From the IMG/VR virus record IMGVR_UViG_3300034105_002232: a stretch of DNA of 64,000 nucleotides; one strand, 5' to 3'. Numbering within the stretch: the first letter of the stretch is position 1; each line of letters begins with the position of its first letter. Shown piece after piece: positions 2,002 to 60,235 of this stretch. The notes beneath the pieces are model-generated. The model had not been told where the DNA came from. It did not search any database and saw only the letters and a list, made by a program, of their open reading frames with translations. Source of the stretch: a virus. Position numbers and translations under genes: made by a program.

Positions 2002-2617
2002 AAAATTTTATCAAATTAATTAAGTTATGGTCTTTGCTAAAGTACTGAGTTACCTGTTCAAAATATTTAGGTTTTTCTTCTAATGCTTTTTTAAAAATTT
2101 GTTTAAATCTAAAACGTTCACTACTGTTTTCTGTCACATGTTGATAATTGTATTTAAAGTACCGATTAGTCATGCCATGACTACTCAGAAATTGACTAAA
2201 CAGCTGCCGGTAGCTTGAGTCGCACAAAAAAAATGTGCAGTTATCTAAATTGATACCATCTAGAAATAACACTTGTTGTTCAGTGTGATCATCAAAGGCA
2301 ACACGATCAAATACTAAATCAAAAAAGGCATCCAAAAACTGCAAAGGATCCAATTGGTTATGATACAAGAACATGTATTCTGCGATCCCGCTTAACCAAC
2401 GATCAACCGGATCTCGCAATACAACCAAGGCATGTTTGTGATACAGATTGTCGGTATGGTAATTGTAAATCTCCCATCCCCAATCTTTCAAATTGGGTTT
2501 GGTCCACGACGTGGCATTTTTAGGAATATTGATATACATTAGGTCAGAGTCTGGCTTTGACATACATTCGCCAAACACATGACCCTTTAATTTATAATAT
2601 TCTAAAAAATCAATCAC
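1988..2617 (-). CDS. Sulfotransferase family 2-like protein
   Basis: NIPKNATS and LRDPVDRWLS motifs; paralogue of the adjacent gene. Confidence 0.75.
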   Translation of the reverse strand: MIDFLEYYKLKGHVFGECMSKPDSDLMYINIPKNATSWTKPNLKDWGWEIYNYHTDNLYHKHALVVLRDPVDRWLSGIAEYMFLYHNQLDPLQFLDAFFDLVFDRVAFDDHTEQQVLFLDGINLDNCTFFLCDSSYRQLFSQFLSSHGMTNRYFKYNYQHVTENSSERFRFKQIFKKALEEKPKYFEQVTQYFSKDHNLINLIKFYGTP

Positions 2618-3345
2618 TTTTGCTGTGCAGGAATTATGTAATTGTAAACTGCTAGGCCGCTGTCAACTGTGATCTGTGCAGCACCTTCGTCGCTAAATCG
2701 AATCATTTTATCACCTGGCAGCCCAAGGATACTGATAACAGCACTGATGGGCCAGTGCCATGCTTTGGTCAACGACCCTGCCACGTCGTGGGCAAATACA
2801 AAGTTGCCGGCATGACTACTATGATCACCAAAGTAAAATACTAGATTGCCGTTTTCTGTTTTGGCAATAAATGTAGTTTCTTCGCTGTTGGCCTGTGATT
2901 GGAAACGTAGACGCTGAATAGCTGCTACACTGGGCTCAATTTCCACGCCCCACTTGACACCTTTGAACTTGACTGTTTTGAGTTTGTCGTTTACAATTTC
3001 TGCGCTCATGAAGCGATAGTCATTTTTAAAGTCGCCAGCCTTGTTTTCAAAATGTATGCCTCCAGGTTCGGCAACGCCATCTTTATCTCTTGTGATAATA
3101 CTCAATTTAGCATCTTCTCGGTATTCGGGAATACCAAGAATAGTATTAAGTTTACCCAAACTTGGCATACCAAACGTGCCTACAAAATCTGGAACAGGAG
3201 TATGAAATTGTGCTTGCACAATGGCAATACGTTCTTCGCTGACTGCATCAATTGATGTAATGGAATCTGTGCCAGTGATTTTAACTAAATCAATAATGCC
3301 TAAGCTGTGGGTGTGTGAAACTATGTCAAGTAAGTAATCTCGCAT
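2614..3345 (-). CDS. DNA polymerase sliding clamp (gp45-like)
   Basis: 243 aa with clamp-like beta/alpha pattern, near PolB, AGGAG SD. Confidence 0.65.
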   Translation of the reverse strand: MRDYLLDIVSHTHSLGIIDLVKITGTDSITSIDAVSEERIAIVQAQFHTPVPDFVGTFGMPSLGKLNTILGIPEYREDAKLSIITRDKDGVAEPGGIHFENKAGDFKNDYRFMSAEIVNDKLKTVKFKGVKWGVEIEPSVAAIQRLRFQSQANSEETTFIAKTENGNLVFYFGDHSSHAGNFVFAHDVAGSLTKAWHWPISAVISILGLPGDKMIRFSDEGAAQITVDSGLAVYNYIIPAQQK

Positions 3346-8211: not shown

Positions 8212-8780
8212 TGTGGTAACCTTTGTTGAATAAGTTTAACAACCTCGGTGTTCAATACCACTTCATAATGATTACAGTCCAGTTCAATCAGTTCCATGAT
8301 ATCATTGCGTTTCTTTTGGCTGGACACTGTTACTACTCCGTCGTTGGGTTTAGATAACCAAGGTGAATCACCTTGTGTAGTAACTATGTTGCACCATGGC
8401 TGTTTTACTTGGATATCTCTGGCATACCGCATGGCCCACGAATTTGGTCCAATGTCTTTTAACAGTCTGCTGTACGGCAAAAAATACTTGGCCACATCAG
8501 CAACTTCGGCGCCGCCATAAGGAGTGCTTAGTGTAATTGCTCCCAGCACCTGATCCGGGAATTCAGCTGCCAGGTGCAAGGCATACACACCACCTAGACT
8601 ATGACAAACGAAGAACATGTCTTTTTTGTTTGCCAACTGATAACGCATATCAGCTAGATTTTTTTCAAACCCGTTACGACTATCATAATTGATCAGCCAA
8701 TCGTTGCCGCCCACGTGTTCTCTAATATAGTTGAAACTCTCACTAGTAGCACTGGCACCATGGATATAAACTATTACCAT
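8208..8780 (-). CDS. Alpha/beta hydrolase
   Basis: YIHG, HSLGG nucleophile elbow, NDGVV and NH triad motifs. Confidence 0.85.
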   Translation of the reverse strand: MVIVYIHGASATSESFNYIREHVGGNDWLINYDSRNGFEKNLADMRYQLANKKDMFFVCHSLGGVYALHLAAEFPDQVLGAITLSTPYGGAEVADVAKYFLPYSRLLKDIGPNSWAMRYARDIQVKQPWCNIVTTQGDSPWLSKPNDGVVTVSSQKKRNDIMELIELDCNHYEVVLNTEVVKLIQQRLPQ

Positions 8781-9934
8781 TATGTTCGATACTCCGGCCA
8801 TAAGTCAGCAAACCGGTATTTGAAGTCGGGCCAATAAGTCTGCTCTTGCTTGGAGTGCCACTCATATAAATCATTGCAGTTGTCTTTGCTGGTAGTTGTG
8901 TTTCTAATGCTGTTGGCCATTTCTTGTAAGAAAGTTTTTTGTCTATGCCATTTATGGTACGGTATAGATTTTTCTAACTCTTGTGCTGCCAGATCCCTAA
9001 ATTGTTTAGGTAAATTAATTACTGATAATACAACAGGGTTATTAAGTTCATTCCATCTCATATTTGGCAAATTATTATCGGCAAAGTATTCGTGTACCTG
9101 TGATAAATTTAATGCGTTGTAAACCGAATACACACTGGCTACCCCAATTAAATGCCCAGGCCGATCCTTTACAGCATCCTGCAGATACCTGATATTTTTT
9201 AACAGTAAATCCCAACTGGCTCCATGCCTGACATACTCAAATTTCTGCTCTACTGTGTCAAAGCTGATATCCCACACCACACGATTTTTGTCCAGTAACT
9301 TTTTAAATATTTGATTATTTTCTAATGGAACACTTAGGTTTGTTATTAGATTGATATGTACATCAGGGCCAATGGCATCCAGCAATTGATCATTTTCTTT
9401 TTGCAATAATGGTTCACCACCAAGTAGTCCTAGATTTTTCAATGTACTTTGATTTGACTCAATGAATGCGATTATTCCAGGCATGGTGTTCCTGTAGTCT
9501 AATCTTTCTAACGGAATTTTCTGATGAGACGCCCATATACTACTTGCTTCGGGACCGCAATAGGTACAACTAAGATTGCAGGTATTAGACCAACGTATAT
9601 CTAAGTTTTGTAGATGCTGATCTTGGATAGTATCAAGATTAATAGTTTTTCTTTCTGATATATCATTATACCAATTTCTTTCGCTGGTACTAGTCATTTG
9701 TTCCTGTCTTTCACAGATAGAACAATTCTCATGAGTTTTATTTTCTGCAATTGCCTGTTTGATATGTAAGATCTGGCTAGATTTAATTACATCTTGTATT
9801 GGGGTTATTCGTAAATCTGCCAGGGCAACTTCGCCAGCACAGCAGGTTTTGTAAGACCCTTGTGGATTGATGTGTATGTTGGTCCAAGGTGCGTAGCAAA
9901 AGTTTTTGCCAATTGAATTATCAAGTTTTATCAT
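8780..9934 (-). CDS. Radical SAM protein with N-terminal twitch/SPASM-like Fe-S domain
   Basis: CNLSCTYC, GGEP; N-terminal CYAPW..CC..CxxC. Confidence 0.9.
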   Translation of the reverse strand: MIKLDNSIGKNFCYAPWTNIHINPQGSYKTCCAGEVALADLRITPIQDVIKSSQILHIKQAIAENKTHENCSICERQEQMTSTSERNWYNDISERKTINLDTIQDQHLQNLDIRWSNTCNLSCTYCGPEASSIWASHQKIPLERLDYRNTMPGIIAFIESNQSTLKNLGLLGGEPLLQKENDQLLDAIGPDVHINLITNLSVPLENNQIFKKLLDKNRVVWDISFDTVEQKFEYVRHGASWDLLLKNIRYLQDAVKDRPGHLIGVASVYSVYNALNLSQVHEYFADNNLPNMRWNELNNPVVLSVINLPKQFRDLAAQELEKSIPYHKWHRQKTFLQEMANSIRNTTTSKDNCNDLYEWHSKQEQTYWPDFKYRFADLWPEYRT

Positions 9935-9945
9935 TGAATTACCGT

Positions 9946-9968
9946 TAAAATGCGGCCTAGGCCGCATT
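9946..9968 (-). terminator. Intrinsic terminator after dps
   Basis: AATGCGGC-CTAG-GCCGCATT followed by T run. Confidence 0.7.
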
Positions 9969-9969: not shown

Positions 9970-10404
9970 TTATTTAAGTGTTGAACGTAACTGCCAACTA
10001 TGTTTTGCATGTGCGTCTTGTCGATCAGCCAAGAAATTACTTAGACCGTGTTCGCCTAATTCTTCGGCTGCCATGAACACAATCTTGAACATCTCCTGCA
10101 TTTTTACAGAGTCTGCCAACAATTGTGCTACCATCTCATCAGGTTGCAGTATGTCTGTCTCGTCATCAATGCCCGACAGCATGCTGAACCGAGAAAACGA
10201 TCCGGGCGTATAAGATCCAATCTTGCGAATATTTTCAGCAAATGGATCAATGCTACCGTACACTTCTTCGTATATGTTGCCAAACAAGTCATGCAACTGT
10301 GAGAATAGCGGTCCCTCCACGTTCCAATGAAAATAGTGCGCTTTTAAATAAAAAGCAAATTCACTTGCAAATGCTATCTTCAACGCCTTTTGTAATTCAT
10401 TCAT
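9970..10404 (-). CDS. dps: Dps ferritin-like DNA protection protein
   Basis: HWNVEGPLFSQLHDLF..D..AE signature. Confidence 0.92.
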   Translation of the reverse strand: MNELQKALKIAFASEFAFYLKAHYFHWNVEGPLFSQLHDLFGNIYEEVYGSIDPFAENIRKIGSYTPGSFSRFSMLSGIDDETDILQPDEMVAQLLADSVKMQEMFKIVFMAAEELGEHGLSNFLADRQDAHAKHSWQLRSTLK

Positions 10405-10538
10405 TATCTACCTTGTCCTCTGTATGCTTTATGACTTTGTTTCTGTACCTTGTTCATGGAACTGGTTTTTACACGGCCGCCTTGGCTGGTGCGCTTGCTG
10501 ACTGCATTGATTTTACTGTTTGAATTTTTTACTGCCAT
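10404..10538 (-). CDS. 44-aa basic peptide ending YRGQGR (not in ORF track)
   Basis: AGGAG SD; MAVKNSNSKINAVSKRTSQGGRVKTSSMNKVQKQSHKAYRGQGR; TAATG overlap with dps. Confidence 0.75.
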   Translation of the reverse strand: MAVKNSNSKINAVSKRTSQGGRVKTSSMNKVQKQSHKAYRGQGR

Positions 10539-10549: not shown

Positions 10550-12397
10550 TTATTTGGGTACACAGTTATTTACTCTTACTCCGCCCTTGACTTTGGTTTT
10601 AGGGCTGCCAATTTTTTTGCCCTTCCAACATTTAGGATCTAGGCGAACTTTTTCTTCCTGTAGTCCGTATCCGGCACGTTCAAGTTCTTCCATGTAACTC
10701 TCAATGGATTCAGTCATGCTGCGATCATGTGCGCGATGTGCTGCACGATCACGGTCAGCATCAGGTTCGTGTCCTGTGGTTTTTTTCTTTGGTGCATCAT
10801 ATTGGTCGCCACGGATGCCTTTGTACACACGTTTGCCAGTTTTAGGATCATCCTCGTAGTGATGACGTTCACCTGGGCGTAGACTTTCCTTCATGCTTTT
10901 GGCTTGGTCAGCTGCAATTTCTGCACGTAGTGCATCAATTTCTGCTTGTTTTTGTGCAGCCAGTTTCTTGTAATAGCTGGGGTCTGGCAATCCACGCTTC
11001 TTGCGTAGTTCTTGATGCTGTTGATGCAACTTGTCCTGCACTGAAGTTTCTGTCATGCTGTAGCCAGGGCATTCCATCATGCCGTGTTCGCTGCAGTAAC
11101 GACCTTCGTTGGTCATGTTACAACCAGCTTCACCTAAGCCAAGTGCTTTTTCCTGTTGCTGTTTTATTTTGTCAAGCTGTTTGAATCTGTTTCGCTTATA
11201 CTCGGTGTGTAATTTGGCACCGTAAGTTTCCTCTACACCTTGTTCGTTCTTGATCCATTCGTCCGGAGTCATTCCATATTTTTCAACAAACTGGTCGTGC
11301 AATTCTTTAGGAGTAACATTTGACTTGTTGGCAATGGTCTGCATCATATGATCTATTGCGTTATAACTATGCGGATTTTTTAAATCTTTTGCTAAGTCTT
11401 CAACAGCACCTTCCGCTACACCTACATTTGCTGTATGTACAACTTTGAAATCTTGATGATTAGCAAACATCTTGGTCATGAGATATTTTTGTGCTTGATC
11501 TTTGGTTTCAAAACTAGGAGTGTTCAATACTGGATTGCCAGAATTTTTATACACAATATGATAACCGGTCAAAGGCTCATCAAATCTGTTGCCTTCCGCC
11601 ACACCTTGCCGCTCGGCAAAGTTTTCTTTAGCAATATGTTTAGTTGGATCAAATTGTTTACCTGACATAGAGGCAATAATTTGTTGATATTTGTGATCTC
11701 CAAGGAATCCTGGATCGTTAAGTTTTTGTTTTACTAAGTCCTTAAACTCAGGACGCTCACGCCAGTTCCAAGAATCACCATTGAGTGGTGTAACAAGACT
11801 AAATCCTGGTTTGCGAGGATCACCATTGTTGTCAGTTACTTTTAGATGCTTGCCGTAGATTTCATCAAAATTCAAGCCTTCCGCCACACCTTGTTGACCA
11901 ATCTGTACTAGCCACTCAAGTTCATCCTCAACTTCTTTAACAGCGAAGAATTTGACATTAGGAATTTGTTTTGTATCAAACCATTTGTTAGCTACTTTGA
12001 CCATCCAAGCACGATGTTGAGGGTCGCTTGAGTTTGGTTCATACTCACCGGTCATGTTAATCCAAAGTGGATGTACATTGCCGTCCATATCGTACCCTAC
12101 TAGTTCGCGCCATTCTTGTTCCAATTGATCAGGAACAAACTGATCTAATTCAGTATCGCTCATCCACTCTTGGCCAATGTCCAAGCCTTCAGCCACACCT
12201 TGTTGTTCACGCTTTCTCAATTCCCGGCGAATCAATGTTTTAAATTTTAATTCATTACGACCCATTACACCTGGTCTTAGCATTGCTTTCAGTTCATCGG
12301 TACTATGTTTGCTGTAGTCTGCACCACCTGGCGCTATCTGGTCAACTCGGCCTTCCGCCACACCTTGCTTTTTATTAAAAAAATCATTAATAAACAT
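10550..12397 (-). CDS. Modular putative head-internal polyprotein with QGVAEG repeats
   Basis: Six GVAE/GVEE linkers separate unrelated segments; C-terminal CWKG..GGVRVNNCVP. Confidence 0.75.
   Translation of the reverse strand: MFINDFFNKKQGVAEGRVDQIAPGGADYSKHSTDELKAMLRPGVMGRNELKFKTLIRRELRKREQQGVAEGLDIGQEWMSDTELDQFVPDQLEQEWRELVGYDMDGNVHPLWINMTGEYEPNSSDPQHRAWMVKVANKWFDTKQIPNVKFFAVKEVEDELEWLVQIGQQGVAEGLNFDEIYGKHLKVTDNNGDPRKPGFSLVTPLNGDSWNWRERPEFKDLVKQKLNDPGFLGDHKYQQIIASMSGKQFDPTKHIAKENFAERQGVAEGNRFDEPLTGYHIVYKNSGNPVLNTPSFETKDQAQKYLMTKMFANHQDFKVVHTANVGVAEGAVEDLAKDLKNPHSYNAIDHMMQTIANKSNVTPKELHDQFVEKYGMTPDEWIKNEQGVEETYGAKLHTEYKRNRFKQLDKIKQQQEKALGLGEAGCNMTNEGRYCSEHGMMECPGYSMTETSVQDKLHQQHQELRKKRGLPDPSYYKKLAAQKQAEIDALRAEIAADQAKSMKESLRPGERHHYEDDPKTGKRVYKGIRGDQYDAPKKKTTGHEPDADRDRAAHRAHDRSMTESIESYMEELERAGYGLQEEKVRLDPKCWKGKKIGSPKTKVKGGVRVNNCVPK
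11225..12367 (-). repeat. Dispersed 18-bp direct repeat CAAGGTGTGGCGGAAGGC
   Basis: Copies at 12350-12367, 12185-12202 (1 mismatch), 11876-11893 and 11591-11608; degenerate copies at 11408-11425 and about 11225-11242. Confidence 0.92.
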
Positions 12398-12406: not shown

Positions 12407-12916
12407 TTAAATTGCCTGGGTTCTTAGTGCTGCTATTTGCGACGTTAGGTCTTCAATTTGTCCTTGAATGGCAATTTTTTGTGACTGAGTATCTCTAAGA
12501 CTCATGGCTTTTTCAACTGGATTGGCACCTTGTGGGAAAGCTCTGTTCAGCTGTGCAATTTGTCCTCGTGCTCCAGCCAGCTGTGCAGTTAATCCACCAA
12601 CTTGGCCTTTTATTTCGTCTTTCTGAGCTTTACGTTGCTGACCCATGGCAAACTCCTCTGCAGGGTTTCTGGCTGTGTCGTTACCAATACCGGATCCAGG
12701 TGCACCGTATTCTGCAAGATACTGTTCAAATTCCGCACGCAGGCTTTGTTCAACACTTTCGTCTGTGCCACCATCACCTACCAGGCGTCCTTTAAAAGGA
12801 TGACCTTTCTTGCTTGTGCGAGCTTTTTCTGTGCCACGCACTTGATCACCGGGCTTTTGACCCACTGCTTGTCCAGCAAATGACATCTTCTCTAATAGGT
12901 CGCGCATGTTGCTCAT
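12407..12916 (-). CDS. Putative head-internal protein
   Basis: KPGDQVRG and HPFKGRLVG motifs, coiled-coil C-terminus, xxE sites. Confidence 0.55.
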   Translation of the reverse strand: MSNMRDLLEKMSFAGQAVGQKPGDQVRGTEKARTSKKGHPFKGRLVGDGGTDESVEQSLRAEFEQYLAEYGAPGSGIGNDTARNPAEEFAMGQQRKAQKDEIKGQVGGLTAQLAGARGQIAQLNRAFPQGANPVEKAMSLRDTQSQKIAIQGQIEDLTSQIAALRTQAI

Positions 12917-13740
12917 TAGTAAACGCCTTTGCCCACAGCAACTTTTTTCATCTTGGCAGCATTGCCCAGTTTCTTAGGTACGCCTGATGTTGGCTTGTGT
13001 GCTGGTCCGCCCATGCTTGTGGCAACACCTGCTGAACTTGATCCACCACCTGTGGCCATTTCGCTGACCTGACGACTTTCGTCGTATTTGTTGTACTTGT
13101 CTCTAATCTTGTCTAAATCTTTGCCTTCACGACCTGCTTTAGCCAATGCCGCCATGCCCTCTTTGCCGTACTTCTCATGGCCTTTGGCAGCACGACTCAT
13201 GCCTTTTTGGCCATCCTCGCCTAGGCTAGCTTGTCCTGCAACAGCTTTACCTGTTGGCTTAGAACTTATTCCTGTGCGACTTGATTTCATTTTTTCTTTG
13301 CCGCCACCAATGTGTCTACTACCGCCTAAACGTTCAGATTGTCTTGGTTTATGTGTTTTACCTACTGTGGGTTTGTTCTTAGATAAGAAATCAGCCACAG
13401 CATCATCATAATCATCTTCTACTAGCAGCTGATCAAATGCATACTCTGCAGCTTCAGCTGTGAAGCTCATCATGACCTGCTCTTGATCATGCGCCATTTC
13501 GTGTGACAAATACTCATGTACTGTACGCAAATAGTCATTTGCTAGAGTGATCTTTTCGCTTACCCAGCCATCCAGGCCTTGCTGTTCGCTAACTTCTTTA
13601 AGCATACGGTGCAGTTCAATTGCATATTTGGCTGCACTATAGCAATCACTGCGGGCCATTTGTACTTCATGGTCAGAATGCATGTCATCTGCTTCTTGTG
13701 CAATTTGACTAGTTTCTACAATAAATTCTGTTGGTTTCAT
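12916..13740 (-). CDS. Putative head-internal protein with T4 CTS-like N-terminus
   Basis: MKPTEFIVE resembles T4 IP leader MKTYQEFIAE; upstream ATAAATA. Confidence 0.55.
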   Translation of the reverse strand: MKPTEFIVETSQIAQEADDMHSDHEVQMARSDCYSAAKYAIELHRMLKEVSEQQGLDGWVSEKITLANDYLRTVHEYLSHEMAHDQEQVMMSFTAEAAEYAFDQLLVEDDYDDAVADFLSKNKPTVGKTHKPRQSERLGGSRHIGGGKEKMKSSRTGISSKPTGKAVAGQASLGEDGQKGMSRAAKGHEKYGKEGMAALAKAGREGKDLDKIRDKYNKYDESRQVSEMATGGGSSSAGVATSMGGPAHKPTSGVPKKLGNAAKMKKVAVGKGVY

Positions 13741-13769
13741 GTTGGTTACCTATTAGTAATATGTATTTA

Positions 13770-14069
13770 TTAGCTTACGACAAAGGTCAGTTGTTTGCTG
13801 CCTGGGTCAATGTGATTGGGGTGTAATGCGCCGGGATTGCCTTCAACAACCAGATTTTCTAATTTAAAATCGCCATGGCACGAACAATTCTCAACTCTCA
13901 CAGTGTGAATGCCAGGATCTAAATTGCAAACCATATGCTCACGAATATAAATTTGATAACCTGCCCAACTAAACGTGCGTTCTGTCAGCAGGTCGTTATC
14001 AACATAAATTCTATAACTTGGAGGTGCTTCGCTCCAATGACAATGCACATCGGCTGACATGTGTATCAC
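13770..14069 (-). CDS. Hypothetical beta-sandwich protein
   Basis: ORF with beta-rich pattern (YRIYVD, LDPGIHTVRV). Confidence 0.6.
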   Translation of the reverse strand: MIHMSADVHCHWSEAPPSYRIYVDNDLLTERTFSWAGYQIYIREHMVCNLDPGIHTVRVENCSCHGDFKLENLVVEGNPGALHPNHIDPGSKQLTFVVS

Positions 14070-14911
14070 GGCTGCCTGTTCTTTCTAGCGGCCAGTTGAG
14101 TATGAATCATGTCCATTTGTTCTTTGAGCTTTTTATAGCGCTTGGTTAGATGGAGCCCAGCCATCATCTTGGGCAATGTGGCAGCAGTTACATCATTGTC
14201 GTTGCCCATGGTGGCCATGCTGTAACGTGGGTCATTGCCATTTTTGACCACCCCTACTCCAGCTGCATCTTCGGCCATGGTTTGCGGAATCTTGTCTAGC
14301 ACACGGCCCAGTTCTGCATCATCTCTGCCGTACATTTGCAGCAAAAATGCACTACGCTGCTTGGGGTCGTTGCGTACTAGATTCCAGGCCTGTCTGGTTT
14401 GAGTACCATGACTGACATCTACTGATTGTCCGTTGATATCAATTACTTTGTGTCTTTCGTCTGCTATTATAACATAGCCGTGTTGATCTGCTGTGGCACA
14501 TTCTTTTAAATTTTTGAAGGTTTTAAAGTACCCAGGATTGCCATCTTTTTTGACACTGTCTGGCGCTAGACGCTGTGCATCCGGTGCACCCACTGCTGCT
14601 ACAAAGATGGTATTTGCAGCATTAAACTGTGCAGGCAGTTTATACGGACTTGCGACTTCTAATATACGGTCACTGGGAATGCCCGCAGCATGCATCAGTA
14701 TACTTTTGTCTGTAAAATTGAATGGGCTTTTTGGAGGTTCGGTCTTGTTACTGGTTGCAATAAACACACTGTCACGACCAAATTTACCTTGCAGGCTTTG
14801 AAATACTTCCCGATGCCCCAAATGAAAAGGCTGGAACCGACCTGGATATAATACCACCAGTTGCGGTGCAGCCTCGTCTAAATACCTCTCAAATAAATTA
14901 GCAATAAACAT
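14066..14911 (-). CDS. HxGH nucleotidyltransferase (cytidylyltransferase-like)
   Basis: YPGRFQPFHLGH motif. Confidence 0.85.
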   Translation of the reverse strand: MFIANLFERYLDEAAPQLVVLYPGRFQPFHLGHREVFQSLQGKFGRDSVFIATSNKTEPPKSPFNFTDKSILMHAAGIPSDRILEVASPYKLPAQFNAANTIFVAAVGAPDAQRLAPDSVKKDGNPGYFKTFKNLKECATADQHGYVIIADERHKVIDINGQSVDVSHGTQTRQAWNLVRNDPKQRSAFLLQMYGRDDAELGRVLDKIPQTMAEDAAGVGVVKNGNDPRYSMATMGNDNDVTAATLPKMMAGLHLTKRYKKLKEQMDMIHTQLAARKNRQP

Positions 14912-16592: not shown

Positions 16593-17315
16593 TTATTCCT
16601 GTATACACACCAGCTCACAAACTTCTCTTATGATGTCTGGACAGATAATACGTACCAAATTAGCTACACCAACATCGTTGGTGTAAAAATAACAATTCCA
16701 CATCCAATCTCCATCTTTGACCAACTGCTCTGTGGTATTTTTAGGCAGCTTGACCAAATCTCCCAGTTGCTGCAGATAGTTATGGACCTGCGTCCTTGAT
16801 TTTATGTCAAACCGTTTCTCTTTAAGGTATATTCGATATCTAAATTTTGGTTGTCTATTTACTATTATTGCGTTGCCTTGCAACCACTGACTACTGACAT
16901 CAGATTCTGGGCCTGTAGCAGACAGTATCTGATGTCGAAACTGGACACCAATGGCCAATGCTATGGATTGTAGTATTGATTCTGATTCGGCATAGAAGCT
17001 GATTTTTGGCTCTTCAATCCTGACCCTTATGTCAGCATGTTTGTGTATCAGTCTTTTGAGATCAATCAGCAGACCCAGATCAGCTTCTTTGAGTTGCTCT
17101 TTTAGCTTACGGTCCCACCACGATCCGCCTCCCAGTGAATACGATCGAGCACATGATTGCCGGTGCTGTAGATTGGCCTTGATATCATCGTACCGGATAC
17201 TCTTGCAACCAGGAGCGTAAATTTCTAATCGATAAAGATACTGTTTAAAATACTGTTTGGCAGTATATTGTATCTTTGTATCTTTAGACAGGTTCTGCCA
17301 GAACAATGTATCCAT
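16593..17315 (-). CDS. Hypothetical protein
   Basis: 240-aa ORF in the operon. Confidence 0.65.
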   Translation of the reverse strand: MDTLFWQNLSKDTKIQYTAKQYFKQYLYRLEIYAPGCKSIRYDDIKANLQHRQSCARSYSLGGGSWWDRKLKEQLKEADLGLLIDLKRLIHKHADIRVRIEEPKISFYAESESILQSIALAIGVQFRHQILSATGPESDVSSQWLQGNAIIVNRQPKFRYRIYLKEKRFDIKSRTQVHNYLQQLGDLVKLPKNTTEQLVKDGDWMWNCYFYTNDVGVANLVRIICPDIIREVCELVCIQE

Positions 17316-19563
17316 TTTCGTCTATTCTATAGGTTGAATCGGTATTCGCGATTGGTTGAAATGTAAACTCTTTGTCATGAAAATCAATTATGATAGTGCT
17401 CACTGGCGCAATCTTGTCAAACAATATGCGTTTACTCAATGGCACTTTGATTAGATCGTTGATTTTTCTCTGCAAAGGTCTTGCACCCATTTTGGGATCA
17501 AATCCTGTGGTAATCAATTCATCAACAGCAGCTTCAGTTAGTCTTACACGTAACTGTTTGTCTATTAGAAGATCATTTAATTCTGCAATAAACTTGCTAA
17601 CAATTTTACGCATACTTAGATCATCTAATTTAGAAAATTTAACAATACCATCTAAACGATTTCGGAATTCAGGTTTAAAGAATTCTTTAACAGCACGATC
17701 ATCTTCTTGATTTTTTTGTAACTCTTTACCAAAGCCAATGTTGTTTTTTTCGTTGTCTGCTGCACCAAGATTGCTGGTTAAAATAATCATGGCATTACGA
17801 CAGTCAGCTTTCTTACCATTGCTGCTGGTAATTGTGCCTTCGTCCATCATTTGCAGCAAAATGTTACTAACGTCGGGATGAGCTTTTTCAATTTCATCCA
17901 TCAAGATAATGCAATTGGGATTTTTTTCAATGTCACTGATCAGCAACCCACCACCCAGATTGCCATCCTCGTAGCCAACATAACCAGGGGGTGCACCAAT
18001 AAGTTTAGCAACAGTATGTCGCTCTTGGTATTCACTCATGTCATACCGCAGCAGTTTCATACCAAGATTTTCTGCCAGCAACTTGGCCAGTTCTGTTTTG
18101 CCTGTGCCAGTTGGTCCCAAGAACAAGAAGTTACCAATTGGTTTGTTTAGGGCTTTTAATCCTGCACGGCTCACATAGATTTTTTCTAATACTGTATCTA
18201 CTGCAGCATCTTGACCGTACAGTCGATCCTTGATGCCAACTTCAAGATTTTCAATTCCTTTGGCACCTTCGGTGTTGCCAATTGATTCAATTGGCAATCT
18301 TGTCAACCGGCTGATGGTGTGTACAATATCGGCACCCGAAACAATCCAATTGGTATCTTTGATTTTGAGTCGAGCACACGACGCATCTATTAGGTCAATG
18401 GCTTTGTCGGGCAATTTTTTATCAGTTTGATAACGCACACTTAGATCAACTGCGGTGTTAATGGCATCATCAGTGATGGTGCCTCCGTGGAATTTTTCAA
18501 AGTGTAATCTTAACCCAAACAAGATATCTTTGGCAACTTCAGCACTGGGCTCATCAATGGTGATCCGTTGGAATCTGCGCATCAGAGCACGATCTTTTTC
18601 AAAACTCTGGCTATATTCTTCCCAGGTAGTACTAGCAATAACTTTAATTCGGCCTTTGCTCAATGCAGGTTTGATCATGTTACTAAAGTCCACACTGCTT
18701 TGACTTCCTGCTCCTGCTCCACGCATCTGGTGTGCTTCATCGATGAACAAGATCGCTTTGCCTTTTACATTTAGTGCAGCCAGTACCTCGTGAATTTTTT
18801 CTTCAAAGTCGCCGCGATACTTGCTACCTGCTAGCAAACTACTAATATCAAGATTGTACACTGTGTAGTCTAATAGATATTCTGGTACCGTTTTTAACAC
18901 AATTGCCAAAGCCAATCCTTCTGCAATAGCAGTCTTACCAACGCCAGGATCGCCTACCATTAGTATATTGCTTTTGTTGCGGCGTGCAAGAATTTCTACT
19001 ATTTCGTTGGTCTCGGCAGCACGTCCAATCACTGGGTCAATCTTGCCGTCCTCGGCCTGGGTGTTGAGATTGTCACAATACCGTTCAAGTATCTTGTCTG
19101 CCTGGCCGGCATTTGCAACTGTCTTGCCTGCGTCTGATTTATACTCTTTGTTGTATGTCTCTATTAGTTTTGCACGATCAAGACCATACTTGACCATGAA
19201 ATAATGTGCGTAGCTGTTGGATTCTGCATGTATGCTCAAGAATAAATCTAATATTTGAATATGCGTTCTTGCACTAAACAGGACCTGAGTAAATGCTCGA
19301 TTAAACACCCGTTCCAGAGCATGGGTTTTTTTAGGATCACTGGTATCGTTGACAAGATATGTTTGATTGGCAAGATAATCTTCGATGTCGGTTTCTAATC
19401 CTTTGATATCTGTTCCGTATCCGGATAGAAGCTCTTGGAAGGGAGTATATCGTATCATGCTTAAAAACACATGTTCAAGGGTCACATACTCATGACTTAA
19501 ACTTTTAGCCAGTTCAGTGGCTTCAACTACAATGTAATCAATTTCAGGGTTGGTTTGTAACAT
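17284..19563 (-). CDS. clpA: ClpA-type AAA+ unfoldase
   Basis: Clp N-domain; two Walker A motifs (GDPGVGKT, GPTGTGKT); IGF ClpP-docking loop; no ClpB M-domain. Confidence 0.92.
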   Translation of the reverse strand: MLQTNPEIDYIVVEATELAKSLSHEYVTLEHVFLSMIRYTPFQELLSGYGTDIKGLETDIEDYLANQTYLVNDTSDPKKTHALERVFNRAFTQVLFSARTHIQILDLFLSIHAESNSYAHYFMVKYGLDRAKLIETYNKEYKSDAGKTVANAGQADKILERYCDNLNTQAEDGKIDPVIGRAAETNEIVEILARRNKSNILMVGDPGVGKTAIAEGLALAIVLKTVPEYLLDYTVYNLDISSLLAGSKYRGDFEEKIHEVLAALNVKGKAILFIDEAHQMRGAGAGSQSSVDFSNMIKPALSKGRIKVIASTTWEEYSQSFEKDRALMRRFQRITIDEPSAEVAKDILFGLRLHFEKFHGGTITDDAINTAVDLSVRYQTDKKLPDKAIDLIDASCARLKIKDTNWIVSGADIVHTISRLTRLPIESIGNTEGAKGIENLEVGIKDRLYGQDAAVDTVLEKIYVSRAGLKALNKPIGNFLFLGPTGTGKTELAKLLAENLGMKLLRYDMSEYQERHTVAKLIGAPPGYVGYEDGNLGGGLLISDIEKNPNCIILMDEIEKAHPDVSNILLQMMDEGTITSSNGKKADCRNAMIILTSNLGAADNEKNNIGFGKELQKNQEDDRAVKEFFKPEFRNRLDGIVKFSKLDDLSMRKIVSKFIAELNDLLIDKQLRVRLTEAAVDELITTGFDPKMGARPLQRKINDLIKVPLSKRILFDKIAPVSTIIIDFHDKEFTFQPIANTDSTYRIDENGYIVLAEPV

Positions 19564-28406: not shown

Positions 28407-29408
28407 ATGCTGAACTACAAAGATATACGCCGCGTACACCTTGAGATAAGCACCAGGTGTAATGCGGCGTGCCCTGAATGTCCACGAAATTTTCGTGGTG
28501 TTGACATAGTAGACACCTATCCCATATGTGATATGAGTTTAGATCAGGCAAAAAAGATCTTTACAACTTCTTTTTTATTACAATTAGATCAAATTCTCAT
28601 CAATGGCAATTACGGTGATTTTATCACTGCACATGATGGTCTGGAGATTGTGGAATATTTTTTAACAGTCAATCCCAACATAAAAATCATAATCAGCACA
28701 AATGCCAGCGGCCGTCCACATATATGGCGTCAATTAGGTGAGCTTGGGGTAGAAGTTCAGTTTAGAATTGATGGACTAGCAGATACTCATCATCTGTATA
28801 GACAATATACAAACTTTGAATTAATATTGGAGAATGCATTAAAGTTTATACAAGCAGGAGGCTATGCCATATGGGCAATGATTAAATTTGATCATAACAA
28901 ACATCAGATATCTCAGGCTGAAATATTATCTAAAGCAATGGGATTTAAAAGATTTGAATTGGTTGATGCTGGTAGGGACACCACTGTGGTCTTTACTAGA
29001 GATAAACAACTTAGTCACGTAATAGGCAATTATCAAGGACCAACAGACTATGATTTATTATATGATCAATATCAACAGTATATTAGCAATCCTGACATTA
29101 CTTTAAAAAAAGTACAAATACAAGAACGAACCATTAAATGTTATTCAAAAGAAAATAAAGAAGTATATGTGTCTGCCAATGGAGAAATATATCCTTGTTG
29201 TTGGTTAGGATTTTATCCTCTTAGTAAACAAGGAAATCCTAGTACGTTTCAGTTACGGCCGTTAATTAAAGAAAATAATGCACTTGAATATAGCATAGAA
29301 CATGCAATCGCATGGTTTAATCAAATTGAGTCTACGTGGAGTAAAACAGTACTAGATGGAAAAATCTATACTTGCAATGAGACCTGCGGGAGTAGAGCTG
29401 TAAGTTGA
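28407..29408 (+). CDS. Radical SAM protein with C-terminal SPASM/twitch domain
   Basis: CNAACPEC; YPCC..CxxxC. Confidence 0.9.
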   Translation: MLNYKDIRRVHLEISTRCNAACPECPRNFRGVDIVDTYPICDMSLDQAKKIFTTSFLLQLDQILINGNYGDFITAHDGLEIVEYFLTVNPNIKIIISTNASGRPHIWRQLGELGVEVQFRIDGLADTHHLYRQYTNFELILENALKFIQAGGYAIWAMIKFDHNKHQISQAEILSKAMGFKRFELVDAGRDTTVVFTRDKQLSHVIGNYQGPTDYDLLYDQYQQYISNPDITLKKVQIQERTIKCYSKENKEVYVSANGEIYPCCWLGFYPLSKQGNPSTFQLRPLIKENNALEYSIEHAIAWFNQIESTWSKTVLDGKIYTCNETCGSRAVS

Positions 29409-30115: not shown

Positions 30116-31255
30116 TTACTCCTTTAACAAAGCCGTTAGTTTTGGTAAGTAATCATTTATGTTCAAATTTCTAAACTCCTTTGTAAGATTGATTTCTTCA
30201 AAAAATTTATTCCGCATAGACGATGAGTAATTTACTGTTTTAATATAATCAACTAAAAATGATAAATTAAAGTTTATTTCCTGCAAATATGTAATTATAC
30301 TATGCTTTTCTTTATCATTGAATATTTGTAGAGAGTAATGCAACGGATATTCGCAAAATATCCATGCAGGTTCAATTTTTAGTTCTTGCACTAATTCGAT
30401 AACAGGATCCAAATACAATATGTTTAACGCACTTATTACAGTATGAGTATTAAAACTGATGTTAGATTCACGCAAAAATTTAATATTATTTAAAACAGCA
30501 TCCCAACTACCTGTAGTTCTAATGTAATAAAATTGCTCTTTGGTGGCATCTAAGCTTAATGTGATATGTACTTTTTTAAATTTCTTAAGTGTATCGTGCA
30601 TTTTACCATGAATTTCTACAGTTCCGTTAGAAGTGTAATATAAGGTACAATTTGATGAGTTGCCGTCACTAATAATCTTTTCTAATATCTTCAGATGACT
30701 TAAATTTAAGAAAGGTTCACCGCCCATAATAGATACTTTTTCGACTGAACTAAAATCTTCGTTACAAACATTCTCTAATAGAGATTGTGTGTATCCGGCA
30801 CCTGTATATTTTTTATTTGGGAATAATTTCTTATGCTTCCATTCATCCTCAATCCAATGACTAGAACTTGACCATGATCCGCAGGTCCTGCAGGCCAAGT
30901 TACAATTGATCCCGCTATTAATTACTAAATTTTTTATTTTCTTATCAACGATCTGTTTGTTGTATGTGTCATGTAATTGTTCCAAGGTTGGATTATCATC
31001 TTGAAATAGCGCATATTGCCGTAAACTTGTTATTCCGTTGTTCTCATCGTCCCAGCACCCGCTACATTCAACACTTTTTATTCCTTTTAAAATATTTTTT
31101 TGGATATTCACAACTGTAGGAGAATTAATTAGGTTATGGAACGTTATGTTTTTTTGTCCTGGTATCGAAACCTCGCAACAAATGTTTGATAATCGATGAT
31201 CAAATCCACCAAAGGCATTGGTGCAATAGGTGTTAAGATTTAATTTGTCTGTCAT
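30116..31255 (-). CDS. Radical SAM protein with N-terminal Fe-S domain
   Basis: CNLACRTC, GGEP; same architecture as 8780..9934. Confidence 0.9.
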   Translation of the reverse strand: MTDKLNLNTYCTNAFGGFDHRLSNICCEVSIPGQKNITFHNLINSPTVVNIQKNILKGIKSVECSGCWDDENNGITSLRQYALFQDDNPTLEQLHDTYNKQIVDKKIKNLVINSGINCNLACRTCGSWSSSSHWIEDEWKHKKLFPNKKYTGAGYTQSLLENVCNEDFSSVEKVSIMGGEPFLNLSHLKILEKIISDGNSSNCTLYYTSNGTVEIHGKMHDTLKKFKKVHITLSLDATKEQFYYIRTTGSWDAVLNNIKFLRESNISFNTHTVISALNILYLDPVIELVQELKIEPAWIFCEYPLHYSLQIFNDKEKHSIITYLQEINFNLSFLVDYIKTVNYSSSMRNKFFEEINLTKEFRNLNINDYLPKLTALLKE

Positions 31256-56266: not shown

Positions 56267-56340
56267 TGGTTGCAGGACCAGGAATCGAACCTGGGACTGT
56301 AGCTTATGAGACTACCGTTTTACCGCTTCACTATCCTGCG
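56267..56340 (-). tRNA. tRNA-Met(CAT), initiator-like
   Basis: Cloverleaf with C1-A72 mismatch, CAT anticodon, encoded CCA. Confidence 0.8.
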
Positions 56341-56386
56341 ATTGTTCTTACACCAATTTAAAACGCTTTAATACTTGTTCGATTCT

Positions 56387-56581
56387 TTAAATGGAATTAC
56401 TGGCACGCTTGGCCTCTTTTGCATTGTAATGCTCCTCAATTGCTAGTATTGCCCAGGCCACCAATGCAGACATATTGGCATACACCGCAGCCGGGTTATC
56501 TGCGCCGTAGCAGACAATCAAGTTAAACACAGTGATGATGCAAATAGTGGCCGGGAACCATCGTTTGAAAAATATAATCAT
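56387..56581 (-). CDS. 2-TM small protein (start MIIFF)
   Basis: AAGGAG SD. Confidence 0.65.
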   Translation of the reverse strand: MIIFFKRWFPATICIITVFNLIVCYGADNPAAVYANMSALVAWAILAIEEHYNAKEAKRASNSI

Positions 56582-56605
56582 TGCCAACTCCTTGATAGAA
56601 AAATA

Positions 56606-56679
56606 TGGCTCCGGTGGAGAGAATCGAACTCCCACCAGCGGTTTTGGAGACCGCTGCGCTGCCATTACGCCACACCGGA
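56606..56679 (-). tRNA. tRNA-Trp(CCA)
   Basis: GCGGT-CTCCAAA-ACCGC anticodon arm, TTCGA, encoded CCA. Confidence 0.93.
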
Positions 56680-56693
56680 ATTTACTGTACTAA

Positions 56694-56933
56694 TTACTTT
56701 TGAAGAACTTTGTTCAGTCGTTGAACGCTCTCGTCAATCTGCTCTTCCAGTTTCAATTGATTCAGCATGGCTCGATACATGGTCCAGATCAAGCATACAA
56801 TTACACCTGCTGCAAAGACCCACATGAACATTTCAGGATTGAGTTGAAACAACATAACGGTCAATGCTGGGGAAACGATACACAATGCAAAAAATCCAGC
56901 TGTACGTGCTGCTGCACGAATTCGTATATCCAT
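56694..56933 (-). CDS. 2-TM small protein
   Basis: AAGGAG SD; two TM segments. Confidence 0.65.
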   Translation of the reverse strand: MDIRIRAAARTAGFFALCIVSPALTVMLFQLNPEMFMWVFAAGVIVCLIWTMYRAMLNQLKLEEQIDESVQRLNKVLQK

Positions 56934-56955
56934 TCTGTTACTCCTTGATAAAAAA

Positions 56956-57132
56956 TTATTTTAGTTTACGCAAATACTCGATACCATACAGGCCTTTTTC
57001 AAATTCATTGAGTGCTGTTACACAATCACGGTTGGCAGTACCCACAGTACTTTTGTGTCCGTTACGCAATTCGCGTACTCTGACACTGGCCATCAGTACT
57101 AAATTAAATCTATTTTCAATTGGTTTATGCAT
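56956..57132 (-). CDS. rpoZ: RNA polymerase omega subunit-like protein (58 aa, not in ORF track)
   Basis: MHKPIENRFNLVLMASVRVRELRNGHKSTVGTANRDCVTALNEFEKGLYGIEYLRKLK matches the NRF.LVL.A..R.R.L and V.AL.E...G omega signature. Confidence 0.8.
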   Translation of the reverse strand: MHKPIENRFNLVLMASVRVRELRNGHKSTVGTANRDCVTALNEFEKGLYGIEYLRKLK

Positions 57133-57182
57133 ATTTCTTTCATGTGTGTTTGCTTACTTAGCTAACGAACTTGTATTTAAGG

Positions 57183-57503
57183 TCAATGAAAACTTCCCTG
57201 AAAACAATGCCGCATTTCGTGTCCAATTTCATGCATGGTGCTGTGTTGTCCGGTTATCACAATGCATGAATTGCCTTCCCAAAACGAGCAAGCATCTACA
57301 CCAAATCCAAACCCACCAAGCCCACGACGTCGACTTTCTGCTTCGCAAGCCTTTTGCACGTTATCGGCAACAACCCATTTTATTGTGCTGGTGTTGGTAA
57401 AATTCTTGTTGGTGTTAAATCGTGCTTCGGGATCTTTCCACGATCCCGCAAAACTTGAAGTTGCAAAAATAGCAATTACAACAAAAGCAATAACGTTTTT
57501 CAT
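57183..57503 (-). CDS. Secreted protein with HExxH motifs
   Basis: Signal peptide ending SFA; HEIGHEMRH. Confidence 0.65.
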   Translation of the reverse strand: MKNVIAFVVIAIFATSSFAGSWKDPEARFNTNKNFTNTSTIKWVVADNVQKACEAESRRRGLGGFGFGVDACSFWEGNSCIVITGQHSTMHEIGHEMRHCFQGSFH

Positions 57504-57533
57504 AGTCAACACCTTATTAATTACTGTACAACT

Positions 57534-57562
57534 ATTATAGCAAAATGGGTATTTAAAGTCAA
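57534..57562 (-). promoter_or_regulatory. sigma70-type promoter
   Basis: TTGACT-17bp-TATAAT with extended TG. Confidence 0.8.
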
Positions 57563-57846
57563 CCTGATTTTTCGTTGCTATCTTTGTAATACTTTTGCTG
57601 CTTGTGCTTGCGTTCCTGCATGGTTTCTTGGCCCAGGGCTCGTCGCGGATTCATGCACATGTAACATCGGGGATCACCGCAGTTCAGTATTGCGGTTTTG
57701 TGGTTTCTATGTGGCTGTTCAATGTATTTCCACTTGGTGCCTTGATGCATGGCATAGGATTTGGCAATACCAACTTGGCGTTGTATCTTGGTTTCGTCGT
57801 TGAATCTACGACGACTGTTGCGAAACTTATCTTCCTCATGAGACAT
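57559..57846 (-). CDS. Basic hypothetical protein with CG.P.C.MC motif
   Basis: AAGGAG SD; start MSHEED. Confidence 0.7.
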   Translation of the reverse strand: MSHEEDKFRNSRRRFNDETKIQRQVGIAKSYAMHQGTKWKYIEQPHRNHKTAILNCGDPRCYMCMNPRRALGQETMQERKHKQQKYYKDSNEKSG

Positions 57847-57862
57847 AGCTTGCTCCTTAAAT

Positions 57863-57952
57863 TGGCGGAAGCGGTGAGATTCGAACTCACGGACCCATCT
57901 CTGAATCACTAGTTTTCAAGACTAGAGCAATCGTCCACTCTGCCACACTTCC
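57863..57952 (-). tRNA. tRNA-Ser(TGA)
   Basis: CTAGT-CTTGAAA-ACTAG arm, long variable arm, G73. Confidence 0.93.
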
Positions 57953-57970
57953 TTGCATTACTATTTAACC

Positions 57971-58048
57971 TGGAGCAACGGGCGTGATTCGAACACGCGG
58001 TTTTAGGGATTTGCAGTCCCTTGCATTGGGCCGCTCTGCCACCGTTGC
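57971..58048 (-). tRNA. tRNA-Cys(GCA)
   Basis: AGGGA-CTGCAAA-TCCCT arm, U73. Confidence 0.93.
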
Positions 58049-58058
58049 ATAAACTTTT

Positions 58059-58133
58059 TGGTCCGGCTAGCAGGAATCGAACCCACATTAAAGGAGTAGA
58101 AATCCTCTGTATTATCCATTATACTATAGCCAG
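58059..58133 (-). tRNA. tRNA-Arg(TCT)
   Basis: GAGGA-TTTCTAC-TCCTT arm, encoded CCA. Confidence 0.9.
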
Positions 58134-58471
58134 ACTAAACCTGCATGTACTTCGGCGTGACAATTAGCACACAATAAAGTACATTTATTAATTTCTTTTC
58201 TTAACTGCTCTATAGGAGCACCTCTTTTACCACTAATACCAAATTCTTTTATTGATGGATCAATGTGGTGCCACTGTAATGCCGCAAAAGATTTATCATA
58301 CTTGCATCTTTCGCACTTGCCGCCACGCTCAATAATTAACTGGTCTAATTTATCTCTAGCAACTTTATAGGTTCGTTTATTCCAGCATTTTTTGCATTGA
58401 TAACGATACCCCTTTGCATAGAAATGCGATGCTCCTTCGATGCCGCAATCTTTACAGACATACTCTTTCAT
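58124..58471 (-). CDS. HNH endonuclease (homing-type)
   Basis: CxxC pairs, WHH.DP and LLCANCHAEVH motifs; GGAG SD; ATAAATA upstream. Confidence 0.85.
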   Translation of the reverse strand: MKEYVCKDCGIEGASHFYAKGYRYQCKKCWNKRTYKVARDKLDQLIIERGGKCERCKYDKSFAALQWHHIDPSIKEFGISGKRGAPIEQLRKEINKCTLLCANCHAEVHAGLVWL

Positions 58472-58513
58472 TTTGCTCTCCTGGTTAGAGTATTTATCTC
58501 TAACCAAAGATCA

Positions 58514-58590
58514 TGGTGGGCCGGGTGAGACTCGAACTCACTGTCACCCGATTATGAGTCGGACGCTTATACCAGTTAAGCTTCCGGCCC
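58514..58590 (-). tRNA. tRNA-Ile2(CAT), lysidine type (or Met)
   Basis: CAT anticodon; C4-G69 and C5-G68 TilS-type pairs; A73. Confidence 0.8.
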
Positions 58591-58643
58591 ACGAGTGCCC
58601 GCTTGATTACTAGAACTTAATCTAGACCGCGCTACACAAAACT

Positions 58644-58726
58644 TGGTACCCGGAGCCGGACTTGAACCGGCACGCCATGAGCGGGAGATTTTAAGTCTCC
58701 TGTGTCTACCATTCCACCACCCGGGC
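58644..58726 (-). tRNA. tRNA-Leu(TAA)
   Basis: GGAGA-CTTAAAA-TCTCC arm, variable arm, A73. Confidence 0.93.
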
Positions 58727-58741
58727 AAAACTTTTAAAACT

Positions 58742-58815
58742 TGGTGCCCCTTGACAGAATCGAACTGCCAATTGATGATTACAAATCAACTGTTATACCA
58801 TTTAACTAAAAGGGC
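58742..58815 (-). tRNA. tRNA-Thr(TGT)
   Basis: Loop TTTGTAA, encoded CCA. Confidence 0.9.
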
Positions 58816-58821
58816 AAATCT

Positions 58822-58909
58822 TGGCGGAGAGTATAGGAATCGAACCTATCCACCGGTTACCCAGTGACAGTTTAGCAAACTGTTGCCTTAACCGCTCGGC
58901 CAACTCTCC
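58822..58909 (-). tRNA. tRNA-Ser(GCT)
   Basis: ACAGT-TTGCTAA-ACTGT arm, long variable arm. Confidence 0.93.
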
Positions 58910-58921
58910 TAACTTGTTACT

Positions 58922-58950
58922 ATTATATAGTGTAGTACCTTTAATGTCAA
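58922..58950 (-). promoter_or_regulatory. Consensus sigma70 promoter of tRNA cluster 1
   Basis: TTGACA-17bp-TATAAT. Confidence 0.88.
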
Positions 58951-59660: not shown

Positions 59661-60235
59661 TGATTAATAAAATAAGGTTTAAAAAAATTAACAGTTTCTT
59701 GCCAAGACGAAAAGGTAGATGATTGAAATCTAAGACTAAACGTCCATCTATGTTGATTGCTATTATTTAAAATTCTATGAGGAATTGCTGCATTAATTAA
59801 TGTTGGTTTTAAAATTTGACAACGTTCAATTTCAGTTACTTCGTTGTCATCCCATTGCTGATATTCCATGTTGCTAAAATTCTTTTTAGATTGCGTAATC
59901 ATGTCATGATTATTGGGCTGGTACCAAATCATATATGAATCTAGCCCACTTAATACCCAATTAACACCAATTTGGTTAGTACCAGGTGGCCCATCACGAT
60001 GTATAATGCTGTTCATGTTGGGTGGACCACAAAAAAGATGACAATTGTTAATTTTTAATTTATGTTCGGCCGCCCAGTGTTGTATATCTAGATGCACTAC
60101 TTCCAAATTTTTATCTTCAACATAATGCCAGAGATACCATTTTTGTTGGTCAAAATTTTCTTGCTCGAGCGCAGGAAAAACAAAATTGTCTTTTAACGGA
60201 TTAGTAAAAAAGTTCAATTCATGATAATTTTTCAT
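59657..60235 (-). CDS. Cupin/2OG-Fe(II) oxygenase-like protein
   Basis: IHRD...PH.I.N...R..FSLR motif. Confidence 0.7.
   Translation of the reverse strand: MKNYHELNFFTNPLKDNFVFPALEQENFDQQKWYLWHYVEDKNLEVVHLDIQHWAAEHKLKINNCHLFCGPPNMNSIIHRDGPPGTNQIGVNWVLSGLDSYMIWYQPNNHDMITQSKKNFSNMEYQQWDDNEVTEIERCQILKPTLINAAIPHRILNNSNQHRWTFSLRFQSSTFSSWQETVNFFKPYFINQ

Follow-up and report, generated by a model that had tools for sequence, protein, structure and literature searches.

How a phage might string unrelated proteins together in a single chain, and why the short stretches of DNA between them should be kept almost letter for letter, are questions raised by a locus in the IMG/VR record IMGVR_UViG_3300034105_002232, of which a stretch of 64,000 nt (the window) was analysed. 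On its minus strand, at 10550–12397, the window carries an open reading frame (ORF) of 615 amino acids (aa), in which a short leader and six modules are connected by copies of an 18-nt word, called here the joint, whose intact form encodes Q-G-V-A-E-G. A preliminary description of this DNA had proposed that the joint is at once a protease site and a recombination handle, and had likened the gene to a protein-level repeat–spacer array. The analysis presented here leads us to regard the gene as probably an in-frame concatenation of cargo modules resembling phage internal proteins, which would be cut by a prohead protease at joints that double as recombination handles.

The polyprotein and its joints

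The joint occurs in the window, on the minus strand, in three exact copies, one copy with a single mismatch and two that are degenerate; all six share one frame of the 615-aa ORF and follow each other with start-to-start spacings of 165, 309, 285, 183 and 183 bp. Chance would provide 0.02 matches to the 18-mer in the window, and four matches were obtained in none of 100 shuffles. The ORF opens with an ATG that is preceded, at a distance of 5 nt, by the ribosome-binding site GAGGA, and its 15-aa leader is followed by modules of 55, 103, 95, 61, 61 and 225 aa, which have no similarity to one another, belong to different families and spread in isoelectric point (pI) from 4.2 to 10. The copies and their common frame, the spacings and the unrelatedness of the intervening modules are thus as they had been given in the preliminary description. 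Internal translation starts at the in-frame GTG were also considered and were rejected, since a purine-rich stretch directly adjoins the GTG and leaves no spacer between the two.

The AlphaFold2 (AF2) model of the polyprotein was poor overall, with a predicted local distance difference test (pLDDT) value of 48.7, and contained predicted folded units at residues 74–168, 278–323 and 328–386, with dips in confidence at the joints. Module 2 is predicted to be a folded alpha/beta unit. A Foldseek search against the PDB returned nothing under E 1e-3, module 5 having only a weak AraC/Ada helix-turn-helix likeness, and the ESM Atlas gave no usable match for module 2. The last ~35 residues of module 6 (aa 579–615; 10553–10663) constitute a two-cysteine mini-module, C-W-x-G ... 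N-N-C-V, that was also seen in 62 IMG/VR loci and in S-CRM01 g34, where it stands in an N-terminal, middle or C-terminal position, varying with the protein.

Fixed silent sites of the joint

The conservation of synonymous positions, which had been claimed for the repeat in the window, extends to its relatives. Judged by the codon usage of the window, the exact 18-mer has a probability of 6.6e-4 given the peptide, and an unrelated GVAE in another ORF of the window (2614–3345) is written GGC GTT GCC GAA, that is, in common codons. An unbiased sample was provided by a scan for K-Q-G-V-A-E-G that was degenerate at all silent sites and gave 92 matches in loci that had not been picked by the exact word. 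In this sample GCG accounted for 83% of the alanine codons of the joint, versus 7% in the background, GTG for 77% of the valine codons, versus 19%, and GGT for 90% of the glycine codons, versus 44%, while the exact 18-mer made up 40% of the sample, versus ~0.07% expected. The codons of the repeat do not, then, match the preference of the genome.

The conservation is sharply bounded, reaching from position -5 to position +14 and covering ~20 nt. A further control was available in 85 N-terminal leaders of the form M-R-A-x-E-F-x-x-E from the same loci, which are conserved as protein and written in ordinary codons, with GCG at 2%. Because both the chance GVAE and these leaders show ordinary codons, the fixation of silent sites is specific to the internal joint. 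At least 120 IMG/VR contigs contain the exact 18-mer. The G-V-A-E frame of an ORF with 100 codons or more holds 411 of the 414 core joint copies, and the remaining three are truncated at the edges of their loci; genomes of 260–370 kb carry one to four joints, all of them inside genes of the polyprotein kind. As a natural example of selection acting on the silent sites of a coding linker, the joint is a clear one.

Gain, loss and exchange of modules

The fetched loci contained 93 distinct open frames with 2–7 joints, and the modules of joint-bearing frames fell into 45 families and 140 singletons, arranged in many different orders. Every module of the window protein recurs in other contigs and in other positions, with alignments that stop at the joints. 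Two relatives differ from the window protein by a single module each: P0005 is without exactly module 1 (55 aa, equal to the 165-bp spacing) and has 99.8% identity elsewhere, and P0006 is without exactly module 3 (95 aa, or 285 bp), the rest being 99.7–99.8% identical. Each is an exact deletion from one repeat to the next. A dozen other relatives retain residues 326–615 at 97% identity behind different modules and leaders, and the break points against relatives fall at residues 65, 168, 263 and 326, each of which is a joint.

The same behaviour can be followed in the DNA, as contig L001/L081 carries module 3 with 98% identity over 288 nt; the identity starts inside the joint, and neither flank can be aligned. 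In L002, module 3 has joints on both sides. Among 213 proteins, 45% of the internal ends of matches with at least 70% identity lay no more than 6 aa from a joint, versus 6% for random positions, and the median distance from a match end to a joint was 8 aa, versus 66 aa in the null, a large effect that comes from non-independent pairs. The locus is syntenic in many contigs, comprising genes for a cytidylyltransferase, p99, p274 and p169, variable genes and the Dps gene; its content varies, and the variable part spans about 2 to 3.5 kb. Modules, as these comparisons show, are gained, lost and exchanged at the joint within a syntenic hypervariable locus. The preliminary description had suggested looking for variation in the content and order of the modules, for modules in other genes and for break points at the repeat: content and order both vary at this locus, the modules were found in other genes as well as in stand-alone genes, and the homology breaks fall at the repeat.

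Leaders and stand-alone homologues

Modules 1, 2, 3, 4 and 5 each exist also as stand-alone proteins of about 70–160 aa. These begin with leaders of 7–12 residues of the type M-R-A-Q-E-F-V-T-E, and the final T-E↓G (the arrow marks the presumptive cut) aligns exactly with V-A-E↓G of the polyprotein, an alignment that shows the fused modules to be equivalent to leader-bearing stand-alone genes. Leaders of this type are also found at the start of many long relatives and of the successive genes that form entire arrays in two further jumbo records. They closely resemble the T4 capsid-targeting sequence (CTS), as read from T4 ipII and ipIII; the first 15 aa of the window protein end in V-A-E, and its relatives swap in leaders that are very near the T4 CTS.

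In T4, the leader guides the internal proteins into the prohead core and is then removed by the gp21 protease, which cuts C-terminal to Glu; the internal proteins, alike only in this leader, are injected anti-restriction factors (PMC3012670, PMC9958956, PMC5694885, PMC12373910), and Ip1–3 each disarm a different GmrSD enzyme (PMC12373910). T4 ipII and ipIII have 47 nt of exact DNA in common, covering the ribosome-binding site and the leader, and diverge just past the cut site; they are a direct precedent for a handle that is conserved in DNA. The earlier reading of the joint as a protease site is strengthened by this comparison, because the joint occupies the position of the cleavage end of T4-like capsid-targeting leaders, and the comparative support for that reading is now strong. 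Many of the stand-alone proteins consisting of leader and module (P0172–P0225) also share a short basic tail, ...A-N-M-K-S-G-R/K-x-K, whatever the module, and this may be a second shared signal at the C-terminus.

Protease, capsid and cargo in related phages

Both a Peptidase_S77 and a gp23-type capsid protein were found in three of five motif-bearing jumbo records, and the propeptide of the capsid protein in those records contains L-L-E↓G and L-A-E↓N. The domains that lie between joints in relatives comprise an ADP-ribosyltransferase, ParB_N, a Pol-beta nucleotidyltransferase, GNAT, a dCMP deaminase, a pterin dehydratase, a cytidylyltransferase, GP88 and DUF6321. No peptidase domain was detected in the window protein or in the 17 relatives that were scanned.

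Among cultured phages, only T4-like cyanophages have any homologous module. A tblastn search with the whole polyprotein matched just one module, in S-CRM01, whose g34 has module 5 together with the C-W...N-N-C-V mini-module at its C-terminus. The g34 orthologue of S-CREM2, ORF137, which is the nearest cultured homologue, and its leader-bearing neighbour ORF136 were found in purified virions, as was a cytidylyltransferase (PMC10665884, Table 3). G-V-A-E-G was absent from Phosso, Atu_ph07, Vibrio 2.275.O and S-CRM01 and had one match, at chance level, in S-CREM2, and none of these five phages offers a laboratory system. The DUF6321-type C-terminal module of S-CRM01 g34 (L271, aa ~440–516) also occurs in the T7-like podoviruses P60, S-TIP28, HTVC028P and Venkman, and because podoviruses with this module have no T4-type head proteases, some mini-modules travel far beyond the T4-like phages.

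Proposed mechanism and its alternatives

In the mechanism that we favour, a T4-type N-terminal capsid-targeting leader would carry the whole chain into the prohead core, where a gp21-type prohead protease, cutting after the Glu of hydrophobic-x-Glu, would cleave after the Glu of each Q-G-V-A-E↓G joint. This cleavage would free six small proteins of 6–26 kDa, which would remain associated with the DNA and accompany it into the host as injected effectors, while the identity of the joint DNA would be maintained for in-frame homologous recombination. We infer that the window polyprotein is packaged, cleaved and injected in this way. Besides being a cut site, the joint most likely acts as a short handle of homology in recombination, because its DNA is kept near letter-perfect over about 20 nt, with rare codons, and because this is the very place where related phages remove, add and swap modules in frame. 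A more active role, in which the ~20-nt joint is itself recognised, either bound by a phage nuclease or recombinase or read as a template-switch signal, and leads to an integron-like in-frame capture, deletion and reshuffling of effector cassettes, appears doubtful; if it were true, each phage population would have a fast-changing stock of anti-host proteins, packaged together and released by the protease.

Several points weigh against a concatenation of protease-cut cargo. There is no prohead protease gene inside the 64-kb window, and two motif-bearing jumbo records, G002 (99% complete) and G005, gave no Peptidase_S77 match. No significant domain was found in the window polyprotein with Pfam or PHROGs, and its own modules are without a recognised enzymatic domain. 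The T4-type late promoter (TATAAATA) occurs at chance level in the window, with none near the polyprotein gene, and the T4 prohead protease prefers Leu or Ile at P3, the position that in the joint is taken by Val. Some of the mosaics on short contigs could be assembly chimeras formed at a common 18–21-mer, an explanation that cannot account for the long-contig case at the DNA level or for the diversity across diverged phages. The location of break points at domain borders could also come partly from selection for viable chimeras rather than from a mechanistic handle. As for G002 (342,865 bp) and G005 (loci L274, L275), they have arrays of genes with T4-CTS-like leaders, together with QGVAEG joints, and no match to a Peptidase_S77 or Gp23 model; they either have very divergent head genes or stem from another head lineage in which these signals are also employed.

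The fixed silent sites with their rare codons, in genes whose protein-conserved leader shows nothing of the kind, and the sharp edges of the conservation would also be accommodated by a ~20-nt element with a DNA or RNA function of its own, such as the target of a site-specific nuclease or recombinase or a signal for mRNA pausing or processing, the peptide then being secondary. However, this element was always met within ORFs and in a single reading frame, just one to four copies are present in a genome of 260–370 kb, all in polyprotein-type genes, and the syntenic block has no conserved nuclease or recombinase; the element is not self-complementary, nor was a conserved partner sequence seen. 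We consider such a signal unlikely. Slightly lower in probability is an uncleaved multidomain protein in which QGVAEG is a flexible linker, the DNA identity is due to recent duplication and spread of cassettes, and no protease is involved. The joints do lie in low-confidence, probably flexible segments of the AF2 model, and the virion detection of S-CREM2 ORF137, at 4.1% coverage, is uninformative on processing; but a residue-by-residue alignment places the joint on the cleavage end of the leaders of stand-alone homologues, and its first copy, at residues 11–16, is located exactly at a leader's end. Furthermore, the hydrophobic-x-Glu followed by Gly matches both the leaders and the capsid propeptide of related phages, and neither an invariant Glu nor rare codons would be needed in a linker.

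Cleavage at the joints would also take place if the polyprotein were a component of the prohead core or scaffold that is chopped up and expelled as peptides, like T4 gp22, gp67 and gp68, and were not an effector cargo. In T4, gp21 is known to reduce the core proteins to small peptides (PMC9958956), the last 225 aa of the polyprotein are helical, charged and rich in extra hydrophobic-x-E sites, and the neighbouring gene at 12407–12916 has weak scaffold-like and FlxA-like matches. Scaffolds are conserved, whereas the modules are hypervariable and dispensable, whole ones being missing in near-identical relatives; the modules are predicted by AF2 as folded units, and the enzyme domains of the relatives (ADP-ribosyltransferase, ParB_N, nucleotidyltransferase, deaminase) are typical of injected effectors. 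A core component that is not cargo is hence, in our view, the least probable of these explanations, and the concatenation of protease-cut, internal-protein-like cargo remains the one that we prefer.

Genomic context

The window comes from a large uncultured phage, a giant relative of T4, and its genes include a T4-type DNA polymerase, a clamp loader, PhoH, 13 tRNA genes and several radical-SAM genes. The DNA polymerase is 43–50% identical to those of giant phages such as Phosso, Atu_ph07 and GAP32. The phage is placed by this polymerase in the giant Atu_ph07/Rak2-like branch and not in Tequatrovirus, and GenBank phages gave no near DNA match to the window. The features of the polyprotein locus are collected in Table 1.

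Table 1. Coordinates of the polyprotein, its parts and two neighbouring genes in the window.
Feature	Position	Strand	Basis
Polyprotein ORF, 615 aa, leader and six modules joined by QGVAEG	10550–12397	-	ORF, ribosome-binding site and 442 partial homologues
N-terminal 15-aa leader ending in the first joint copy (G-V-A-E), resembling a capsid-targeting sequence	12353–12397	-	Interchangeable leaders of relatives end in hydrophobic-x-E; T4 IPII/IPIII leader
Joint copy 1, exact 18-mer, residues 11–16	12350–12367	-	
Joint copy 2, one synonymous mismatch (GCT for GCG)	12185–12202	-	
Joint copy 3, exact 18-mer; DNA identity to L001 starts inside it	11876–11893	-	
Joint copy 4, exact 18-mer	11591–11608	-	
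Joint copy 5, degenerate V-G-V-A-E-G; break point common to many 97%-identical relatives	11408–11425	-	
Joint copy 6, degenerate Q-G-V-E-E-T	11225–11242	-	
Module 1, aa 16–70, basic, pI 10; missing from P0005; stand-alone form P0242	12188–12352	-	
Module 2, aa 71–173, acidic, most widespread module; stand-alone forms P0166, P0167	11879–12187	-	
Module 3, aa 174–268; missing from P0006; stand-alone with leader in P0172–P0184	11594–11878	-	
Module 4, aa 269–329; joint-flanked in L177; stand-alone forms P0213, P0214	11411–11593	-	
Module 5, aa 330–390, helical bundle; common to S-CRM01 g34; stand-alone forms P0219–P0225	11228–11410	-	
Module 6, aa 391–615, basic, coiled-coil-like, with further hydrophobic-x-E sites	10553–11227	-	
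274-aa protein, first nine residues close to the T4 capsid-targeting sequence; same syntenic block	12916–13740	-	
Dps/ferritin-like gene, conserved downstream anchor of the variable locus	9970–10404	-	

Upstream of the polyprotein gene, a block on the minus strand (12407–14911) encodes probable capsid-targeted proteins, namely the 274-aa protein, which starts much like the T4 CTS, a coiled-coil protein of 169 aa, one of 99 aa and a cytidylyltransferase-like enzyme with a leader-like start, and many IMG/VR loci keep this block in synteny with the polyprotein. A very basic ORF of 44 aa (10404–10538, minus strand), possibly a real small DNA-binding protein, fills the gap between the polyprotein gene and the Dps-like one. 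Three radical-SAM genes are present in the 64 kb (8780–9967, 28407–29408 and 30116–31255); the one that lies immediately downstream of the Dps-like gene has a SPASM domain. A ClpA/B-like double AAA+ ATPase is encoded at 17284–19563, and the cluster of 13 tRNA genes at 56267–63045 (minus strand) includes one called Ile with the anticodon TAT and two Met (CAT).

Comparison with known systems

No description was found in the literature searched of an in-frame array in which one DNA-fixed joint would be both cut site and handle, nor was a phage paper on the joint motif or a precedent for a polyprotein cut by a prohead protease. Injected internal proteins are front-line counter-defence factors, and if the proposed mechanism is true, many cargoes would be loaded by means of a single leader and a single translation product, with one joint serving as protease site and as in-frame recombination handle; modules convert freely between stand-alone genes and segments of a polyprotein. 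The leaders and QGVAEG joints together provide a simple sequence rule by which hundreds of candidate injected effectors could be mined from uncultured giant phages, and the joint could be adopted in designs that load T4-type capsids with several proteins.

The gene corresponds, in fused form, to the hyperplastic internal-protein loci of T-even phages. Like the T-even internal proteins (IPI, IPII, IPIII and Alt), it has a short leader ending in hydrophobic-x-Glu and unrelated, variable and dispensable cargo in a variable locus, some of its relatives carry an ADP-ribosyltransferase among their cargo, as in Alt, and the handle is conserved in both DNA and protein, in T4 as the leader and here as the joint. 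Unlike the T-even proteins, the units are fused here in one ORF with one start and one leader, the handle is an internal joint of 18–21 nt rather than a ribosome-binding site with a leader, and QGVAEG, the peptide of the joint, is not that of the T4 leader.

Polyvalent proteins of phages and conjugative elements, in which 2–15 unrelated effector domains are found per polypeptide (Iyer et al. 2017, PMC5512222), likewise combine unrelated domains in one chain, with predicted packaging, delivery with the DNA and processing, and show strong mosaicism. Their domains are conflict or effector domains; the window protein has six unrelated modules, none of which matches a known effector domain, and its relatives carry an ADP-ribosyltransferase with ParB_N, nucleotidyltransferase, GNAT and deaminase domains. 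Polyvalent proteins are predicted to process themselves by a zincin-like metallopeptidase (MPTase) domain, whereas no peptidase domain was found here, and no repeated joint conserved in DNA has been described for them. The PeSL cassettes of T4-type phages (Arbiol et al. 2010, PMC2839356; PMC4122927) are similar in that variable genes stand between short conserved stretches of DNA, through which the modules of hyperplastic regions are shuffled. PeSLs are, however, intergenic and consist of an early promoter and a stem-loop, whereas the joint is an in-frame coding sequence that lacks a stem-loop and is a peptide signal as well; a PeSL element was accordingly rejected as an identity for the joint, which is always coding and in frame, with ~20 nt conserved and no inverted repeat.

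The polyproteins of picornaviruses and potyviruses are also single translation products with repeated short cut sites that yield separate functional proteins. There is no homology to them, and theirs is a fixed gene order with essential products and no handle at the DNA level. A CRISPR-like array, which would be non-coding and have regularly spaced repeats of 24–48 nt, was rejected too, the repeats here being of 18–21 nt, with irregular spacings of 165–309 nt, within one translated ORF. The overall interpretation in the preliminary description is partly supported: every computational check that it had proposed came out favourably, and its "repeat-spacer array" is only an analogy. T-even internal-protein loci, polyvalent proteins (PMC5512222) and PeSL shuffling (PMC2839356) each cover part of the picture, and the closest real precedents are the T-even internal-protein loci with their DNA-conserved leader.

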